DNA from: Escherichia coli
Lineage (GTDB): Bacteria; Pseudomonadota; Gammaproteobacteria; Enterobacterales; Enterobacteriaceae
Direction: 5' to 3' (one strand)
Length of the DNA stretch: 64,000 nucleotides
Assembly: GCF_003334385.1 (NCBI RefSeq)
Contig: NZ_QOWN01000024.1
Below the pieces are notes generated by a model, which saw only the letters and a program-made list of their open reading frames with translations, did not search any database and was not told the origin of the DNA. Of this stretch, positions 9,030 to 50,760 are shown piece by piece. The translations under genes were made by a program, and so were the position numbers. The number at the start of each line of letters is the position of its first letter. Position 1 is the first letter of the stretch.

Positions 9030-9176
9030 GATTCGCCTGAACATGCCCTTTTTTCGTAAGTAAGCAACATAAGCTGTCACGTTTTGTGATGGCTATTAGA
9101 AATTCCTATGCAACAACTGAAAAAAAATTACAAAAAGTGCTTTCTGAACTGAACAAAAAAGAGTAAAGTTAGTCGC

Positions 9177-9285
9177 GTAGGGTACAGAGGTAAGATGTTC
9201 TATCTTTCAGACCTTTTACTTCACGTAATCGGATTTGGCTGAATATTTTAGCCGCCCCAGTCAGTAATGACTGGGGCGTTTTTTA
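9177..9285 (+). ncRNA. spf: Spot 42 small RNA
   Basis: Recognised sequence gtagggtacagaggtaagatgttctatc... ending in terminator hairpin ccccagtcagtaatgactgggg plus T-run; located between polA and engB. Confidence 0.9.
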
Positions 9286-10313: not shown

Positions 10314-10556
10314 ATAGAGCGAGGACGCTAACAGGAACAATGACTCAGGATGAGGGTCAGGAGCGCCAGGAGGCGAAGACAGAGGATTGTCAGGAAGACA
10401 AACGTCCGGAGACGTAATTAAACGGAAATGGAATCAACACGGATTGTTCCGGCTAATGGAAAAACAGGGTGTGTTGGCGGCCTGCAAGGATTGTAAGACC
10501 CGTTAAGGGTTATGAGTCAGGAAAAAAGGCGACAGAGTAATCTGTCGCCTTTTTTC
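10314..10556 (+). ncRNA. csrC: CsrC small RNA (CsrA-sequestering)
   Basis: About 245 nt non-coding stretch rich in GGA-containing motifs (aggacg, caggaa, caggat, caggag, ccagga, ggagac), ending in hairpin ggcgacagagtaatctgtcgcc plus T-run; sits between engB and yihI. Confidence 0.85.
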
Positions 10557-10624
10557 TTTGCTTGCTTTCTGTTAGATTCCGCCGCAAATCTATACTGAAT
10601 AAAACGGCTAAAAGACGAACCATT

Positions 10625-12805: not shown

Positions 12806-12888
12806 TAGGCCGGATAAGGCGTTTACGCCGCATCAGGCATCTGAGCATGATGCCTGATGCGGCGCTGGTCGCGTCTTATCAGGCCTAC
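12806..12888. repeat. REP/BIME palindromic element
   Basis: gccggataaggcgtttacgccgcatcaggc ... gcgtcttatcaggcctac inverted REP pair. Confidence 0.85.
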
Positions 12889-13143: not shown

Positions 13144-14553
13144 TCACTCCATCCCCAGCTCTTTTAACTTACGCGTCAGAGTGTTGCGGCCCCAGCCGAG
13201 TAGCCGCGCCGCTTCCTGTTTATGCCCCTGCGTATGTCGCAACGCGGTCGTCAGTAACGTCCGCTCCAGCTCTGGCTGCGCTTCGGAAAGCAGATTTTGA
13301 TGACCGGAACGTAGCGCTCTGTCTGCCCACTGCGCAAGAAGCGTCGCCCAACTGTCCGGTTGCATTTGCGAAGTACTCTCCGCAACCGTTGATTCAAACA
13401 GTTCGCCAGGCAAATCCTGAATCAACACTTCCTGTCCGGCAGCCATTACCGTTAGCCAGCGGCAGGTGTTTTCCAGCTGGCGCACGTTGCCTGGCCACGC
13501 CAGACGCGTCAACGCGGCTTCGGTTTCCGGATGCAGCAACTTCGCTTCTACGCCCAGTTCTCGCGCGGCAACCTGTAAAAAATGGCGCGCCAGGCGGGGA
13601 ATATCTTCCCGACGCTCACGCAGCGGCGGCAGATGAACGCGGATAACGTTCAGGCGGTGGAACAGATCCTCACGGAACTTACCTTCCTGCACCCGCTGTT
13701 CGAGATTCTGGTGAGTGGCAGCGATAATCCGCACATCCACTTTCACCGGCGCATAGCCGCCAACGCGGTAAAACTGGCCGTCTGCCAGCACGCGCAGCAA
13801 ACGCGTCTGCACATCCAGCGGCATATCGCCAATTTCATCGAGAAATAATGTACCGCCATCAGCCTGTTCAAAACGCCCCTGACGAATGGTATTCGCGCCG
13901 GTAAACGCGCCTTTCTCGTGACCAAACAGTTCTGATTCGATCAAATCCTTCGGGATAGCCGCCATATTCAGAGCGATAAATGGCGCTTTGGCTCGCGGAC
14001 TGTGGCGATGCAGGGCATGAGCGACCAGTTCTTTACCGGTGCCGGATTCGCCGTTAATCAGCACGCTAATAGAAGAACGCGAAAGCCGACCGATAATACG
14101 GAACACGTCCTGCATGGCTGGCGCTTCGCCGATGATATCGGTCGTTGGGCCGTTAAGCTGAACATTACGCGGCTGCTGCTGTTCCTGGTAATGACTGATG
14201 GCGCGCTCAACCAGCGCCACGGCTTCGTCGATATCAAACGGTTTGGGCAGATAATCAAACGCCCCTTGTTGATAGGCGCTGACGGCAGCATCCAGATCGG
14301 AATGTGCGGTCATAATGATGACCGGAAGCATCGGATGGCGCTGTTTAATCTGCTTGAGCAGCGCCAGCCCGTCCATTCCCGGCATACGGATATCTGAAAG
14401 CAGCACATCCGGCGTTTTGCTCGCCAGCGCCTCCAGTACCTCCGCGCCGTTCTCAAATGTCGTACAGGTTAAACCCGCTCCAGCGAGCGCACGTTCAAGC
14501 ACCCAACGGATGGAACTATCGTCATCGACTACCCAGACTATCCCTCGTTGCAT
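13144..14553 (-). CDS. glnG: nitrogen regulation response regulator NtrC (sigma54 enhancer-binding protein)
   Basis: 469 aa from Met [12 protein letters not shown]; receiver domain, AAA+ sigma54-interaction domain ([14 protein letters not shown]), C-terminal HTH. Confidence 0.95.
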
Positions 14554-14564
14554 AAACGTCACCT

Positions 14565-15614
14565 TTATTTCCTGATAGGCAGGTAAACCGAGAACTCGGT
14601 ATGCCCTGGCCAACTGGTAAATTCAATTTTGCCTGAATGCTGATCAATCAAATTACGAGCGATGGATAAGCCAAGCCCGGTGCCACCTTCGCGGCCGCTG
14701 ACCATCGGGTAAAACAGCGTATCCTGCAAATGAGGCGGAATGCCTGGCCCGTTATCTTCCACATCAATCCGCGCCGCCAGCCGGTAGCGTTCGCCGTGTA
14801 AGGTCAGTTGAAACGCGGTGCGGGTACGCAGAATGATTTCACCGCCTTCCGGCCCCAGCGCCTGTAGCGCATTGCGCACAATATTCAGCAAGACCTGTTC
14901 AATTTGATCCGGGTCGTGCGCCAGTTCTGGCAGGCTGGGGTCGTAATCACGAATCAACCGCACGTTGTCCGGCAGTTCCATCGACACCAGCGTTACCACG
15001 CGTTCAGCCACTTTGTGAATACTTTCGGTAACGCGCGTACCGGGCAGCTGCGGCCCCAACAGACGGTCGACCAGATTTCGCAGCCGGTCCGCCTGTTCGA
15101 TAATCACTTTGGTATATTCGAGTAGTGATGGGTCAGGTAACGCTTTGCTGAGCAGCTGCGCCGCGCCACGTAAACCGCCAAGCGGATTTTTAATCTCATG
15201 TGCCAGGCCGCGCACTAAATCACGGGCAGCAACCTGCTGGGCGTGCTGTAGCTGTTCCTGACTTAAGCGGCGCTGGTTATCCATCGGAGCCATCTCCAGC
15301 AGGATCATGCCGTCCGGCATACGCTGGGCCGTCACAGAAAGGATATGCGAGCGCCCGTCGATGACCAGCGTCACTTCGTTATCGGTAAAACCTTGCCCCG
15401 CCTCCAGACTTTCTTGCATCAGCTCGATATTTAATGAGAAGTAGCTCAACAGTTCCGGTAACGGTGTACCAAACAATTTGCGGGAGCTTTGGGCGAGCAG
15501 TTGTTGCGCGGCGGGGTTGGCGTAATGGATCGCCAGGTTGTCATCGATTAACAAAATACTGTTAATCAGCGAGTTGAGGATCTGCCCAGCATCGGGCTGC
15601 GTGCCTGTTGCCAT
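14565..15614 (-). CDS. glnL: nitrogen regulation sensor histidine kinase NtrB
   Basis: 349 aa; H-box (LAHEIKNPL) and ATPase G-box motifs; upstream of glnG. Confidence 0.95.
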
Positions 15615-15701
15615 AAAGCAGTCTCCTGAACAGGTTGCACCATTTTAGTGCATTATAGCTTTTTACGGATAAAAAGCGCGAAGCATCAGAGAATTGACGG
15701 A

Positions 15702-15899
15702 GAAAAAAGCCCATGCAGAGATGGGCTACAGATAGCTGACAAACTTCACGTTGGAGAGCGACTCACCTGCTCCGGCCTACCACATCATCACCGTGTAGGC
15801 CGGATAAGACGCATTTGCGTCGCATCCGGCGTGATGTGCTTGCCACCGATCCCAGGCCTGCCAGAGACAGGCGAAAAGTTTCCACGGCAACTAAAACAC
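15702..15899 (-). ncRNA. glnZ: glnA 3' UTR (candidate GlnZ-type 3'UTR-derived sRNA) ending in rho-independent terminator
   Basis: About 200 nt between the glnA stop and hairpin gcccatctctgcatgggc plus T-run (minus strand); contains a REP element. Assignment as an sRNA is from the literature, not from the sequence. Confidence 0.4.
15773..15832. repeat. REP element within the glnA-glnL intergenic region
   Basis: gcctaccacatcatcaccgtgtaggccggataagacgcatttgcgtcgcatccggc palindromic REP. Confidence 0.8.
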
Positions 15900-17309
15900 T
15901 TAGACGCTGTAGTACAGCTCAAACTCTACCGGATGCGGAGTCATACGCACGCGGTCATCTTCTTCGCGACGCAGTGCGATGTACGCATCAATTGCTTCGT
16001 CAGTGAACACGCCACCGGCTTTCAGGAACTCGCGGTCCAGATCCAGTTCGTTCAGTGCTTCTTCCAGAGAGCCTGCAACCTGTGGGATCTCTTTCGCTTC
16101 TTCTGGCGGCAGGTCATACAGGTTTTTGTCCATGGCTTCGCCCGGATGGATCTTGTTCTTGATACCATCAAGACCGGCCATCAGCAGGGCAGCAAAGCAC
16201 AGGTACGGGTTAGCTGCCGGATCCGGGAAACGTACTTCGATACGACGTGCTTTCGGAGAAGAAACCACCGGAATACGGATAGACGCAGAACGGTTACGCG
16301 CAGAGTAAGCCAGCATTACCGGTGCTTCATAGCCCGGGACCAGACGCTTATAAGAGTTGGTGGTCGGGTTTGCCAGGGCGTTAATCGCTTTAGCGTGTTT
16401 GATTACGCCGCCAATGTAGTACAGCGCCTGCTCAGACAGACCTGCGTATTTGTCGCCTGCGAACAGGTTAACGCCGTTTTTAGACAGAGACATGTGGCAG
16501 TGCATACCGGAGCCGTTATCACCGAACATCGGTTTTGGCATAAAGGTCGCGGTTTTACCGAAGCGGTGCGCTACGTTGTGCACAACATATTTGTAGATCT
16601 GAATTTCGTCAGCTTTTTTGGTCATGGTATTGAAGCGGGTAGCCACTTCGTTCTGACCAGCAGTCGCTACTTCGTGGTGATGGGCTTCAACCACCAGGCC
16701 CATCTGTTCCATCACCAGACACATTTCAGAACGAATATCCTGAGCAGAGTCTACCGGCGGAACCGGGAAGTAACCGCCTTTCACTGCCGGACGGTGACCT
16801 TTGTTACCACCTTCATATTGGGTGGAGGAGTTCCATGCGCCTTCGATATCGTCGATAGCAACGTGAGAACCGGAGATAGATGATCCGAAACGGATGTCAT
16901 CGAACAGGAAGAATTCAGGTTCTGGCCCGAACAGTACGGTGTCGGCAATGCCAGTGGAACGCAGGTAATCTTCGGCGCGCTTCGCAATGGAGCGCGGGTC
17001 ACGGTCATAGCCTTGCAGGGTGCCAGGTTCAAGGATGTCGCAACGGATAATCAGGGTGGAGTCGGCGAAGAACGGGTCAATCACTGCGGTGGATGCGTCT
17101 GGCATCAGCACCATGTCGGACTCGTTAATGCCTTTCCAGCCGCCAATCGAGGAGCCGTCAAACATTTTGCCTTCTTCGAAGAATTCAGCATTCACCTGAT
17201 GAGCAGGGATAGTGACGTGCTGTTCTTTACCTTTAGTATCGGTGAAGCGCAAATCAACAAACTTCACTTCGTGCTCGTTCAGCATCGTCAGTACGTGTTC
17301 AGCGGACAT
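15900..17309 (-). CDS. glnA: glutamine synthetase
   Basis: 469 aa, [24 protein letters not shown]...; adenylylation-site region NLYDLP present. Confidence 0.97.
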
Positions 17310-17390: not shown

Positions 17391-17409
17391 AAAGCGAAAT
17401 CTGTGCCAA
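17391..17409 (-). promoter_or_regulatory. glnAp2 sigma54 promoter (-24 GG / -12 GC)
   Basis: Minus-strand TTGGCACAGATTTCGCTTT matches the TGGCAC-N5-TCGCT sigma54 consensus upstream of glnA. Confidence 0.8.
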
Positions 17410-17482
17410 CTTTTAAATTGCCCCTAAAAGGCGTTATCATGCGCACCATCGTGCAAAAGGGCTGCACCACGATGTGAACGTT

Positions 17483-17537
17483 GCACCAATATAGTGCTTC
17501 AATGGAAACATTAAGCACCATGTTGGTGCAATGACCT
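17483..17537 (-). promoter_or_regulatory. NtrC enhancer binding sites upstream of glnA
   Basis: Two dyad elements on the minus strand: tgcaccaacatggtgct and gcactatattggtgcaac (TGCACC-N5-GGTGCA type). Confidence 0.75.
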
Positions 17538-17681
17538 TTGGATAACCCTTTTTATGCTCCGTGAAAGCGATCACAAAGGGACTCTGCAATACTTGTTTGC
17601 GGAGGATGTTTGTGATCCTGTTTTGTAGTGCGATTAATCCGTGTACAATAACGCGCTATTTCTAATGCCTGAGGCAAAGTT

Positions 17682-19505
17682 GTGATCGAAAAATTGCGTA
17701 ATATCGCCATCATCGCGCACGTAGACCATGGTAAAACTACCCTGGTAGACAAGCTGCTCCAACAATCCGGTACGTTCGACTCTCGTGCCGAAACCCAAGA
17801 GCGCGTGATGGACTCCAACGATTTGGAGAAAGAGCGTGGGATTACCATCCTCGCGAAAAACACCGCTATCAAATGGAATGATTACCGTATCAACATCGTT
17901 GATACCCCGGGGCACGCCGACTTCGGTGGTGAAGTTGAACGTGTAATGTCCATGGTAGACTCAGTGCTGCTGGTGGTTGACGCATTTGACGGCCCGATGC
18001 CGCAAACGCGCTTCGTAACCAAAAAAGCGTTTGCTTACGGCCTGAAGCCGATTGTTGTTATCAACAAAGTTGACCGCCCTGGCGCGCGTCCTGATTGGGT
18101 TGTGGATCAGGTATTCGATCTGTTCGTTAACCTCGACGCGACCGACGAGCAGCTGGACTTCCCGATCGTTTACGCTTCTGCGCTGAACGGTATCGCGGGT
18201 CTGGACCACGAAGATATGGCGGAAGACATGACCCCGCTGTACCAGGCGATTGTTGACCACGTTCCTGCGCCGGACGTTGACCTTGACGGTCCGTTCCAGA
18301 TGCAGATTTCTCAGCTCGATTACAACAGCTATGTTGGCGTTATCGGCATTGGCCGCATCAAGCGCGGTAAAGTGAAGCCGAACCAGCAGGTCACTATCAT
18401 CGATAGCGAAGGCAAAACCCGCAACGCGAAAGTCGGTAAAGTGCTGGGCCACCTCGGTCTGGAACGTATCGAAACCGACCTGGCGGAAGCTGGCGATATC
18501 GTGGCGATCACGGGCCTGGGCGAACTGAACATTTCTGACACCGTTTGCGACACGCAAAACGTTGAAGCGCTGCCGGCACTCTCCGTTGATGAGCCGACCG
18601 TTTCTATGTTCTTCTGCGTTAACACCTCGCCGTTCTGCGGTAAAGAAGGTAAGTTCGTAACGTCTCGTCAGATCCTGGATCGTCTGAACAAAGAACTGGT
18701 ACACAACGTTGCGCTGCGCGTAGAAGAAACCGAAGACGCCGATGCGTTCCGCGTTTCTGGTCGTGGCGAACTGCACCTGTCTGTTCTGATCGAAAACATG
18801 CGTCGTGAAGGTTTCGAACTGGCGGTATCCCGTCCGAAAGTAATCTTCCGTGAAATCGACGGTCGTAAACAAGAGCCGTATGAAAACGTGACGCTGGACG
18901 TTGAAGAACAGCATCAGGGTTCTGTGATGCAGGCGCTGGGCGAACGTAAAGGCGACCTGAAAAACATGAATCCAGACGGTAAAGGCCGCGTACGTCTCGA
19001 CTACGTGATCCCAAGCCGTGGTCTGATTGGCTTCCGTTCTGAGTTCATGACCATGACTTCCGGTACTGGTCTGCTGTACTCCACCTTCAGCCACTACGAC
19101 GACGTACGTCCGGGTGAAGTGGGCCAGCGTCAGAACGGCGTACTGATCTCTAACGGTCAGGGTAAAGCGGTCGCGTTCGCGCTGTTCGGTCTGCAGGATC
19201 GCGGTAAGCTGTTCCTCGGTCACGGTGCAGAAGTTTACGAAGGTCAGATTATCGGTATTCATAGCCGCTCTAACGACCTGACGGTAAACTGCCTGACCGG
19301 TAAGAAACTGACCAACATGCGTGCTTCCGGTACTGACGAAGCCGTTGTTCTGGTTCCGCCTATCCGCATGACTCTGGAACAAGCTCTGGAGTTCATCGAT
19401 GATGACGAACTGGTAGAAGTGACTCCAACCTCTATCCGTATTCGTAAACGTCACCTGACGGAAAACGATCGTCGTCGCGCTAACCGCGCACCGAAAGACG
19501 ATTAA
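17682..19505 (+). CDS. typA: ribosome-dependent translational GTPase TypA/BipA
   Basis: 607 aa, GTG start; G-domain motifs [21 protein letters not shown]. Confidence 0.95.
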
Positions 19506-19526
19506 TTTCGTTTTTTAGTTATAAAA

Positions 19527-19555
19527 AACCTGCCATCGCTGGCAGGTTTTTTTTT
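19527..19555 (+). terminator. rho-independent terminator after typA
   Basis: Hairpin cctgccatcgctggcagg followed by a T-run. Confidence 0.8.
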
Positions 19556-19721
19556 ACCTGTCGTGAGCGCACACCAATGCGAGTATCTCCCTTATAAGTC
19601 TGTGATTACGTCAATAGAGAGCTTTGTCACAATTATCTGCAAAGTCATACACCGTTAATTGCTTTCTTTTTTGGCGTAAGCGTAAGATGCTTCATCTGGT
19701 TTAAACCAAAAGGATTAAACA

Positions 19722-42818: not shown

Positions 42819-45800
42819 TTACACCTTTTCCACATTCACAAGGAAGGACTTAAACTCCGGCGTCTGCGTGTTCGCATCACCAACGAATGGCGTTAAAGTA
42901 TTGGCAATAAAGCCTTTTTTAGCTACGCCTTCATAGCCCCAGTGAATCGGAATACCGATGGTATCGATATCTTTGCCGTTCGCTTTCAGCGTGCGAATAC
43001 GTTTGGTCACCACCGCTTTGGCTTTGATATAGCCACGGTTGGAGGAGACTTTCACGGTATCGCCCTGGGCAATGCCAAGTTTATTCGCCAGCGACTCCCC
43101 GATTTCCACAAACTGCTCTGGCTGCAAAATCGCGTTCAACAGCGCGTGTTTGGTCCAGTAGTGGAAGTGCTCGGTCAGACGATAGGTGGTTCCGACATAC
43201 GGGAACTTATCGGCTTTACCCAATGCTTCGGCGTCGTCTTTAAAGATACGTGCAGCCGGGTTCGAGATAACGTTTGGATGCAGCGGGTTAGTTCCCAGCG
43301 GCGTTTCAAACGGCTCGTAGTGTTCCGGGAACGGACCTTCCGCCATCTTATCGAGGGCAAACAGACGCCCCATGCCTTCCTGCTGCATGATAAACGGCCC
43401 GACGCCGCTACCCGGAGGCGCTGCGCTGTAGTCCGGAATATCCCAGCCGGTCCACTTAGTGCCGTCCCATTTCAGCAACTGACGCTTCGGATCCCACGGG
43501 TTACCCTGCGGATCTGCGGAGGCGCGGTTATACAGAATGCGGCGGTTAAGCGGCCATGCCCATGCCCAGCCCAGCGTGTTACCGAGGCCAGACGGATCGG
43601 CGTTATCACGGCGTGCCATCTGGTTGCCTTCCGGCGTCCAGCTACCGGCGAAAATCCAGCAGCCACAGGAGGTTGTACCGTCATCGCGCAATTGGGCGAA
43701 CGAACTAAGTTGTTGGCCTTTCTTGACGATAACCGCACCGGTTGCCGGATCGGTAATATCGGCCAGCGCCTTACCGTTGCTCTCCATCGCCACTTCTTCT
43801 GAAGATGGCTCATGCGGAATGGCGTAGTTCCATGTCATGTTCAGCACCTGGTCCGGGTTCGCGCCACCCCGTTCGGCATACATCTTGCGCAAGCGCAGGA
43901 AGATACCGGAGAGGATCTCGCCGTCAGTCAGCGCAATCCCCGGGGCGTCCGCACCTTTCCAGTGCCACTGTAACCAGCGACCTGAGTTAACGATAGAACC
44001 GTTCTCTTCCGCGAAGCAGGTCGATGGCAGACGGAACACTTCGGTCTGGATCTTCGACGAGTCAACTTCGTTCAGCTCACCGTGGTTCTGCCAGAAGTTA
44101 GAGGTTTCAGTGTTCAGTGGGTCGATGGTGACGAGGAACTTCAGTTTCGACAGACAACCGATCACTTTGTTTTTGTTCGGGAATGAGGCAACAGGGTTAA
44201 AGCCCTGGCAGATATAGCCATTGACCTTGCCCTCTTTCATCATCTCGAAGTATTGCAGGACGTCGTAGCCTTTATCCCACTTCGGCAACCAGTCAAAGCC
44301 CCAGCTATTTTCCGCCGTCGCTTTATCACCAAAGAAGGCCTTCATCATAGAGACGAAGAATTTCGGGTAGTTGCCCCAGTAGTTTACCTGGCCTTCCAGC
44401 AGCGGTTTTGGCGTGTTGGCGGTAAGGTAGGTTTGCAGATCGGTCTGCTTCTCGCTTGGCAGCGTCATGTAACCTGGCAGGCTCTGCGACAGCAGCCCCA
44501 GGTCCGTCAGCCCCTGAATATTGGAGTGACCGCGCAGGGCGTTAACGCCGCCGCCTGCCATCCCCATATTGCCGAGCAGCAGCTGGATCATCGCCATCGT
44601 ACGAATGTTTTGCGCACCAACGGAGTGTTGCGTCCAGCCGAGGGCATACAGGAACGAGGCAGTTTTATCGTGAGCACTGGTTTCTGCGATGTATTCGCAG
44701 ACTTTCAGGAACGCGTCTTTTGGCGTACCACAGATGTTTTCAACCACATCTGGCGTGTAGCGGGAAACGTGCTGTTTCAGCAAGTTCCACACGCAGCGCG
44801 GATGTTGCAGCGTGGTATCGCGTTTGGCGAAGCCGTTTTCGTCCAGTTCATAAGTCCAGGAGGATTTATCGTACTTGCGTTTTTCCGCGTCGTAGCCGGT
44901 GAACAGGCCATCTTCAAAGCCGTAATCCTCACGCACGATCAGGCTGGCGTTGGTATAGGCTTCGGTGTATTCGCGGTTGAATTTTTCATTGTTCAGCAGG
45001 TACAGCAATACGCCTGACAGGAAAGCAATGTCAGTACCGGAACGAATAGGGGCATAGTAGTCAGCTACCGCCGCCGTACGCGTAAAGCGAGGATCGATCA
45101 CAATCAGTTTCGCGCCGTTGTGAATTTTGGCTTCCATCGCCCAGCGGAACCCGACCGGGTGAGCTTCAGCGGCGTTACCGCCCATCACCACGACGAGGTT
45201 GGCGTTCTTGATGTCGACCCAGTGGTTGGTCATCGCACCGCGACCAAATGTTGGAGCAAGACTTGCTACCGTTGGTCCGTGTCAGACACGCGCCTGGTTG
45301 TCGACCGCGAGCATACCCAGCGCGCGGGAGAATTTTTGCGTTAAATAGCCGGTTTCGTTACTCGACGCGGAAGCACACAGCATCCCGGTGGAGAGCCAGC
45401 GGTTAACAGTCACGCCTTCGGCGTTTTGCGCAATGTAGTTAGCATCGCGGTCTTCTTTCATCAGTTTGGCGATGCGATCAAACGCCTCTTCCCAACTGAT
45501 TTGCTGCCATTTATCAGAACCTGGCGCACGGTATTCCGGAAACTTCAGACGGCTTTCGGAGTGGATGAAATCCACCAGGCCAGCGCCTTTCGGACAAAGT
45601 GCACCGCGGTTGACCGGGTGATCCGGATCGCCTTCGATATGGAAGATAGATGCTTTGGCGTTTTTTGCTCCGTCACCGAGGCTGTACATCAACAGCCCAC
45701 AGCCTACGGAACAATAGGTGCAGGTATTACGGGTTTCGCGGGTGCGCAGCAGTTTATACTGCCGGGTTTCCGCGAGTGCTACGCTGGGTGCAAAACCCAG

Positions 45801-50524: not shown

Positions 50525-50760
50525 GGATGCACGACCCGTAGGCCGGATAAGGCGCTCGCGCCGCATCCGGCAATCAATGCCTGATGCGACGCTGTCGCGT
50601 CTTATCAGGCCTACAACTATTGCCGACCTGTAGGCCGGATAAGGCACTTGTGCCGCATCCGGCAATCAATGCCTGATGCGACGCTGTCGCGTCTTATCAG
50701 GCCTACAACTGTTGCCGACCCGTAGGCCGGATAAGGCGCTCGCGCCGCATCCGGCAGTGT
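50525..50760. repeat. tandem BIME/REP array (about 2.5 copies of a ~95 bp unit) between rhaD and rhaA
   Basis: Repeated unit gtaggccggataaggc...gccgcatccggcaatcaatgcctgatgcgacgctgtcgcgtcttatcaggcctacaact. Confidence 0.9.

Follow-up and report, generated by a model that had tools for sequence, protein, structure and literature searches.

In this stretch of Escherichia coli DNA, the region just past the glnA stop codon is almost certainly the glnA 3' UTR from which the Hfq-dependent small RNA GlnZ derives, here in its K-12 (Class III) form. The element is the already characterised E. coli GlnZ, which makes the finding correct but ordinary and already known. It serves as a positive control, in that the earlier note, made by a reader who saw only the sequence of the window (the whole 64-kb stretch that was analysed), located a genuine sRNA derived from a 3' UTR with an error of no more than 1 nt.

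Identity with K-12 GlnZ and layout of the locus

In the window the operon runs glnA-glnL-glnG on the minus strand, with glnL at 14565-15614 and the end of glnG at 13144 in the ORF list. GlnZ lies between glnA and glnL on this same strand, which the earlier note had left unstated, and glnA is its parental mRNA (Table 1). That note had proposed a candidate GlnZ at 15702-15899, with about 200 nt between the glnA stop and the terminator hairpin; from the sequence and a terminator scan we measured a UTR of 197 nt running from 15899 to 15703, so that the proposed bounds hold to within 1 nt. Over its full 285 nt (15615-15899) the glnA-glnL spacer matches that of E. coli K-12 MG1655 with 100% identity, and among 5426 complete E. 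coli genomes such full identity was found in K-12 strains. The RefSeq record of MG1655, NC_000913.3, carries a 'small regulatory RNA GlnZ' (glnZ, b4836, 194 nt) at 4056428..4056621. All 194 nt of b4836 are found unchanged in the window, and with the seed, the UTR length and the REP as published the candidate reading stands. The host strain does differ from MG1655, by 9 substitutions in the 2.7 kb around glnA, where a few fall in the neighbouring genes; it is not MG1655 itself, and GlnZ is presumably expressed in it as well.

Table 1. Features of the glnA-glnL region (positions refer to the window unless another locus is named)
Feature	Position	Strand	Basis
glnA CDS (glutamine synthetase, 469 aa)	15900..17309	-	ORF list; annotated glnA in K-12 records
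glnA stop codon TAA	15902..15900	-	sequence
glnA 3' UTR, 197 nt, first base past the stop to last terminator U	15703..15899	-	
GlnZ sRNA, main 194-nt form (= MG1655 glnZ b4836)	15703..15896	-	exact identity, coordinate mapping
Wider conserved core UUUAGUUGCCGUGGAAACUUU	15895..15875	-	
GlnZ seed 5'-UUGCCGUGGAAA-3'	15879..15890	-	exact match to published seed
Small stem-loop GCCUGUC-UCU-GGCAGGC, just 3' of the U-run that starts the 174-nt form	15856..15872	-	MFE fold
Insert, window copy	15728-15875	-	
Homologous inserts in other species	L009 4454-4652; L046 6723-6914; L037 6330-6514; L060 324-506; L034 1014-1140		
Long imperfect hairpin from the insert, GlnZ nt 45-167	15730..15852	-	MFE and centroid fold; homologue consensus fold
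Intact REP GCCGGATGCGACGCAAATGCGTCTTATCCGGCCTAC (RNA GCCGGAUGCGACGCAAAUGCGUCUUAUCCGGCCUAC), GlnZ nt 67-102	15795..15830	-	regex scan, inverted repeat I1, naRNA4 sub-threshold match
Decayed second REP, inverted, GUAGGCCGGAGCAGGUGAGUCGCUCUCCAACG (start GTAGGCCGGA)	15780..~15749	-	inverted repeat I2
Rho-independent terminator, AGCCCAU-CUCUGC-AUGGGCU + U-tract	15703..15727	-	terminator scan
Ysr49 sub-threshold pieces	15703-15804, 15850-15988	-	Rfam
glnL promoter region, outside GlnZ	15636..15657	-	-10 TATAAT 15657..15652
glnAp2 sigma-54 promoter core TGGCACAGATTTCGCT	17393..17408	-	pattern search
NtrC sites upstream of glnAp2	17530..17514, 17498..17482	-	pattern search

K-12 GlnZ belongs to Class III of Walling et al. 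2022 and to the 'K-12 type' of Miyakoshi et al. 2022, and the element in the window is identical to it in all tested respects: its position right after glnA, the seed, the REP, the terminator and the flanking glnL promoter are all alike. Class III is defined by the order of a seed near the stop codon, a REP insertion and a terminator (Walling et al., bioRxiv 10.1101/2022.04.01.486790), and for the K-12 type both the same seed and a UTR length of 197 nt have been reported (Miyakoshi et al., PMC9731577). In the window the seed lies 10 nt past the stop and is followed by a 148-nt REP-bearing insert within a UTR of exactly this length. Seed, terminator, identity with b4836 and complementarity to sucA and glnP all agree with GlnZ, and nothing in the sequence speaks against it. 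Three GlnZ forms of 213, 194 and 174 nt are known, all ending at the terminator, with the seed in the stretch from nt 194 to nt 174, counted from the 3' end, and the REP internal to the RNA (bioRxiv 10.1101/2022.04.01.486790). If these published lengths are counted back from the terminator end, the 5' end of the 174-nt form should fall near 15876 and that of the 213-nt form near 15915, within glnA.

The terminator hairpin (AGCCCAT-CTCTGC-ATGGGCT, 15727..15708) is followed by a T-run to 15703 (U6) and is the sole terminator-like site on the minus strand within 15400..16100; the scan returned 2 sites in the region against 0.6 expected. It is the GlnZ 3' end and the presumed Hfq-binding module. 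The glnA terminator is leaky enough to allow glnALG read-through. A sigma-70 promoter scan of 15400-16100 found none, missing the known weak glnL promoter as well, and this result is consistent with GlnZ being processed rather than independently transcribed. The transcript that yields GlnZ is driven by the sigma-54 promoter glnAp2, and Walling et al. (bioRxiv 10.1101/2022.04.01.486790) found that GlnZ depends on NtrC and is induced when nitrogen is limiting. On the glnL side an exact NtrC site (TGCACTAAAATGGTGCA, 15652..15636, minus strand, 0 mismatches) abuts a TATAAT, and the pair sits 35-40 nt before the glnL start codon and is conserved in Salmonella loci. This pair is the autoregulated glnL promoter, glnLp.

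Searches against Rfam 15 gave no GlnZ family, either over the whole window at the gathering threshold or over 15500-16050 at E <= 10, where the only matches were fragments of naRNA4 and Ysr49. Since Rfam 15 returns no GlnZ family even for the reference sequence, the absence of a match, which the earlier note had named as a refuting outcome, carries no weight. The lack of a usable Rfam model leaves the locus unannotated in many RefSeq E. coli genomes, and many PGAP-annotated E. coli records list nothing in the glnA-glnL spacer. The match to Ysr49 (Yersinia sRNA 49, RF02766) reached only 18.5 and 13.4 bits against a gathering threshold of 95 bits, and it falls into two pieces because the insert lies between seed and terminator. 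Of the Ysr49 consensus, the 3' end (GCCGUGGAAACUUUUGGCCCAUCU..GGAUGGGCUUUUUU) corresponds to the GlnZ seed plus terminator, while the 5' two-thirds have no relation to the E. coli sequence. On the glnA 3' end of Y. frederiksenii the model scored 33.3 bits, also below threshold (L063 10537-10660, minus strand), and it stayed below threshold in four Yersinia species with minimal UTRs. Judged from these alignments, Ysr49 is probably the Yersinia GlnZ orthologue under another name.

Processing, fold and target pairing

What we show ourselves is the identity of the sequence, the seed, the terminator, the REP, the fold and the complementarity to the targets; for processing, dependence on Hfq, repression of the targets and the response to nitrogen we rely on published work on the identical K-12 sequence. 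In that work RNase E releases GlnZ from glnA mRNA at sites flanking the stop codon and Hfq is needed, as followed by northern blots, in an RNase E temperature-sensitive mutant and in an hfq mutant (bioRxiv 10.1101/2022.04.01.486790; PMC9731577). The correlate of this processing in the window is a U-run past the stop codon (GU|UUU).

Put together, these elements act as follows. Under nitrogen limitation NtrC activates glnAp2, and glnA mRNA is made up to the terminator at 15727-15703. A cut by RNase E in the U-run just past the stop, at about 15896, frees the 194-nt RNA, whose single-stranded 5' seed pairs with the leaders of sucA, glnP and aceE and represses them, steering 2-oxoglutarate to glutamate and glutamine synthesis. 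The REP insert of about 150 nt folds into a long hairpin that leaves the seed and the terminator/Hfq module close to each other, and this hairpin is also an RNase III substrate. One mRNA thus yields glutamine synthetase together with an sRNA by which 2-oxoglutarate dehydrogenase and the import of glutamine are lowered, and in this way GlnZ links nitrogen assimilation to the TCA cycle, a link that is already established.

The UTR had been called structured, and the calculated fold bears this out: the 194-nt GlnZ folds at -81 kcal/mol compared to -64.7 +/- 4.3 kcal/mol for 200 dinucleotide shuffles (z = -3.8), none of which folded as well. Near the 5' end the small stem-loop at the start of the 174-nt form recurs when five class III homologues are folded to a consensus, and Walling et al. 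(bioRxiv 10.1101/2022.04.01.486790) describe it as a probable guide hairpin for RNase E. The long imperfect hairpin formed by the insert is predicted to bring the seed and the terminator close together, and probing with RNase III has shown that the enzyme cuts this stem (same source). A consensus fold of five homologues, without C. sedlakii, has the same architecture; with n = 5 and an insert that is a palindromic DNA repeat, this may be taken as weak evidence for selection on the RNA structure.

The REP palindrome that the earlier note had placed inside the UTR is indeed present there, as an extragenic, multicopy, imperfect palindrome of about 35 nt that fits the consensus GCCKGATGCGRCGY..RCGYCTTATCMGGCCTAC. 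Its arms of 15 nt are 87% complementary (inverted repeat I1), and a regex search counted 14 REP copies in the window, the one in the UTR and 13 others. Beside it lies a second, decayed REP in inverted orientation, the first 10 nt of which pair perfectly with the tail of the intact one, and which aligns with the intact second REPs of S. enterica arizonae/diarizonae and C. amalonaticus. The presence of a decayed inverted REP next to an intact one indicates that the palindrome is the remnant of a two-REP (BIME-like) unit. Of the insert, nothing but the REP part is repeated at other places in the window.

In the ensemble, the seed core at the 5' end is mostly unpaired, at 70-94% for nt 9-16. The first 24 nt of GlnZ are predicted to form duplexes of -20.5 kcal/mol with the K-12 sucA leader (-48..-27) and of -18.4 kcal/mol with the K-12 glnP leader (-22..-11), both at sites upstream of the start codons of targets that lie outside the window. 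Shuffled-seed controls of these duplex energies were only marginal, at fractions of 0.046 for sucA and 0.073 for glnP, so that target pairing rests mainly on published compensatory mutations. With these, sucA, glnP and aceE were found to be repressed by GlnZ through base pairing (bioRxiv 10.1101/2022.04.01.486790; PMC9731577), and the experiments used a sequence identical to that of the window (Walling et al. 2022; Miyakoshi et al. 2022).

UTR types and alternative readings

Among 5426 complete E. coli genomes the glnA 3' UTR is of the K-12 type in 1571, of the O111 type in 993 and of the O157 type in about 2858, which means that the REP insert is present in 29% and absent from 71% of them. 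The O157-type GlnZ (EsrF, Class I) has an 85-nt UTR without the REP insert, and the O111-type has a 230-nt UTR that likewise lacks the REP insert and has an extra 98-nt insertion. Both share with the K-12 type the seed core TTTAGTTGCCGTGGAAA(C/T)TT, the terminator and the downstream glnL promoter, but in both the seed is located directly in front of the terminator. We compared the three types by eye, since MAFFT misplaced the seed, which is located on opposite sides of the insertions. In one rare O157-type variant (E. coli VTB96929v, L005 590-610) a 6-nt duplication, TCTCTG, is found on the loop side of the GlnZ terminator hairpin. The 98-nt insertion of the O111 type is flanked by AGGTTCAAA repeats (L002 432-540, E. 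coli 2013C-3513) and occurs in extra copies in some genomes, at up to 3 places per genome and 5731 places in the 5426 genomes, which suggests that it is a small mobile repeat.

Beyond E. coli, a scan of a single genome from each species, which required the seed to lie no more than 30 nt from a glnA-like stop codon, retrieved 56 Enterobacterales species with the seed after glnA, in all of which the 12-nt seed is fixed by the search pattern and its presence is not independent. Independent conservation in the 56 loci is found in the flanks of the seed (G before it, CUUU after it) and in the terminator, which are nearly the same throughout. In 50 of the 56 species, of genera that include Yersinia, Erwinia, Pantoea, Sodalis and Mixta, the UTR is a minimal one of 50-69 nt consisting of a U-run, GUUGCCGUGGAAACUUU and the terminator.

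These comparisons bear on what else the UTR could be. It might be a cis-acting tail only, in which the REP hairpin and terminator shield glnA mRNA from 3' exonucleases and tune glnLG read-through, and from which no trans-acting RNA comes; REP hairpins do stabilise mRNA, and the strong fold fits. Deletion of the terminator also slightly lowers GlnA (Miyakoshi et al., PMC9731577). However, the seed with its near-identical flanks is kept across Enterobacterales even in the REP-free short UTRs, which points to a sequence-specific function, and compensatory mutations show that the identical RNA represses sucA, glnP and aceE in trans (PMC9731577; bioRxiv 10.1101/2022.04.01.486790). Moreover, exchanging the UTR types left GlnA and NtrC levels unchanged (PMC9731577). 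A cis role is able to coexist with the sRNA role but unable to replace it, and a tail acting in cis only is highly improbable.

Still more improbable is that the REP/BIME acts at the DNA level, as a site for gyrase, IHF or nucleoid proteins, or as a naRNA-like nucleoid RNA, and is incidental to GlnZ. It is true that BIMEs are protein-binding sites and that the naRNA4 (RF02564, REP325-type) model matches weakly on opposite strands, at 30.4 bits (E = 0.0015) and 26.6 bits. These scores are far under the threshold of 59.5 bits, though, while true naRNA4 copies, of which the window has four, reach 71-77 bits, and the likeness is limited to the REP motif. The second REP, furthermore, is decayed, and the E. 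coli genomes that lack the insert still have a functional GlnZ. The mechanical ORF list also holds a 40-codon GTG ORF at 15885..15763 on the minus strand, which raises the thought that the UTR encodes a small protein, but this is the least probable reading of all. The ORF has no Shine-Dalgarno sequence upstream, starts within the seed and reads across the REP, and its segment is missing from O157- and O111-type strains and most genera; we therefore rejected it. GlnZ in its K-12 form accounts for the UTR better than any of these.

Origin of the inserts and neighbouring RNAs

An insert like that of K-12 is found in 5 other species or subspecies of the cross-species scan: E. albertii, Citrobacter amalonaticus, C. 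sedlakii, S. enterica subsp. arizonae and subsp. diarizonae. At its centre arizonae, diarizonae and C. amalonaticus carry a pair of inverted REPs, the second of which has decayed in E. coli, and in C. sedlakii most of the REP pair is gone and the insert is shortened. As the insert is homologous across genera, it either predates E. coli or has been passed between genera.

The GlnZ of Salmonella enterica (Class II, 185 nt) conserves the seed and terminator and is released from glnA mRNA by RNase E. Its insertion is located upstream of the seed, whereas that of K-12 is downstream. We considered whether the Class II insertion could be the K-12 insert with the seed switched and rejected this, as the two sequences are unrelated and the Class II insertion instead matches an ERIC-like dispersed repeat, of which E. 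coli genomes have a median of 10 copies each. The segment (L069-L074 2611-2752) carries the motifs ATCCCCAGGAGC and GTGACTGGGGTAAGCG, which we take to be ERIC primer motifs. By its sequence this insertion resembles an ERIC/IRU element, a likeness that is not mentioned in the main text of Walling et al. or of Miyakoshi et al.

A tentative reading, which we regard as unlikely, joins these observations: the K-12 insert could be an old two-REP module in a unique scaffold rather than a recent REP hop within E. coli, and insert-bearing and insert-free forms could coexist through a long-lived polymorphism or through repeated recombinational transfer. Its upkeep could then come from the RNase III-sensitive hairpin altering GlnZ stability or the glutamine response. 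If this were true, the glnA 3' UTR would be a hot spot for three unrelated repeat families (REP/BIME, ERIC-like and the 98-nt element), all of which would have inserted there with the seed and the terminator left intact. Next to the identity of the element, the shared two-REP insert, the ERIC-like Class II insert and Ysr49 are minor refinements.

The logic of GlnZ is shared by CpxQ, SdhX, SroC and NarS, for which the parental promoter sets the level, RNase E frees the 3' fragment and the terminator is the Hfq anchor (PMC9731577); they differ from GlnZ in their seeds, targets and parental genes. A large insertion is also found in E. coli NarS (PMC9731577).

Apart from GlnZ, a full-length match to the Rfam sRNA ES222 (135 bits, 17493-17600, plus strand) is located in the glnA-typA/bipA spacer, in the orientation opposite to that of glnA, where it overlaps both NtrC sites of the glnA promoter (17482-17530). 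Rfam matches at the gathering threshold elsewhere in the window were Spot 42, CsrC, STnc370, SECIS_3 (minus strand) and four naRNA4/REP325-type BIME copies, at 9167-9285, 10314-10567, 19490-19558, 45229-45287, 12808-12885, 50541-50703 and 59548-59625.
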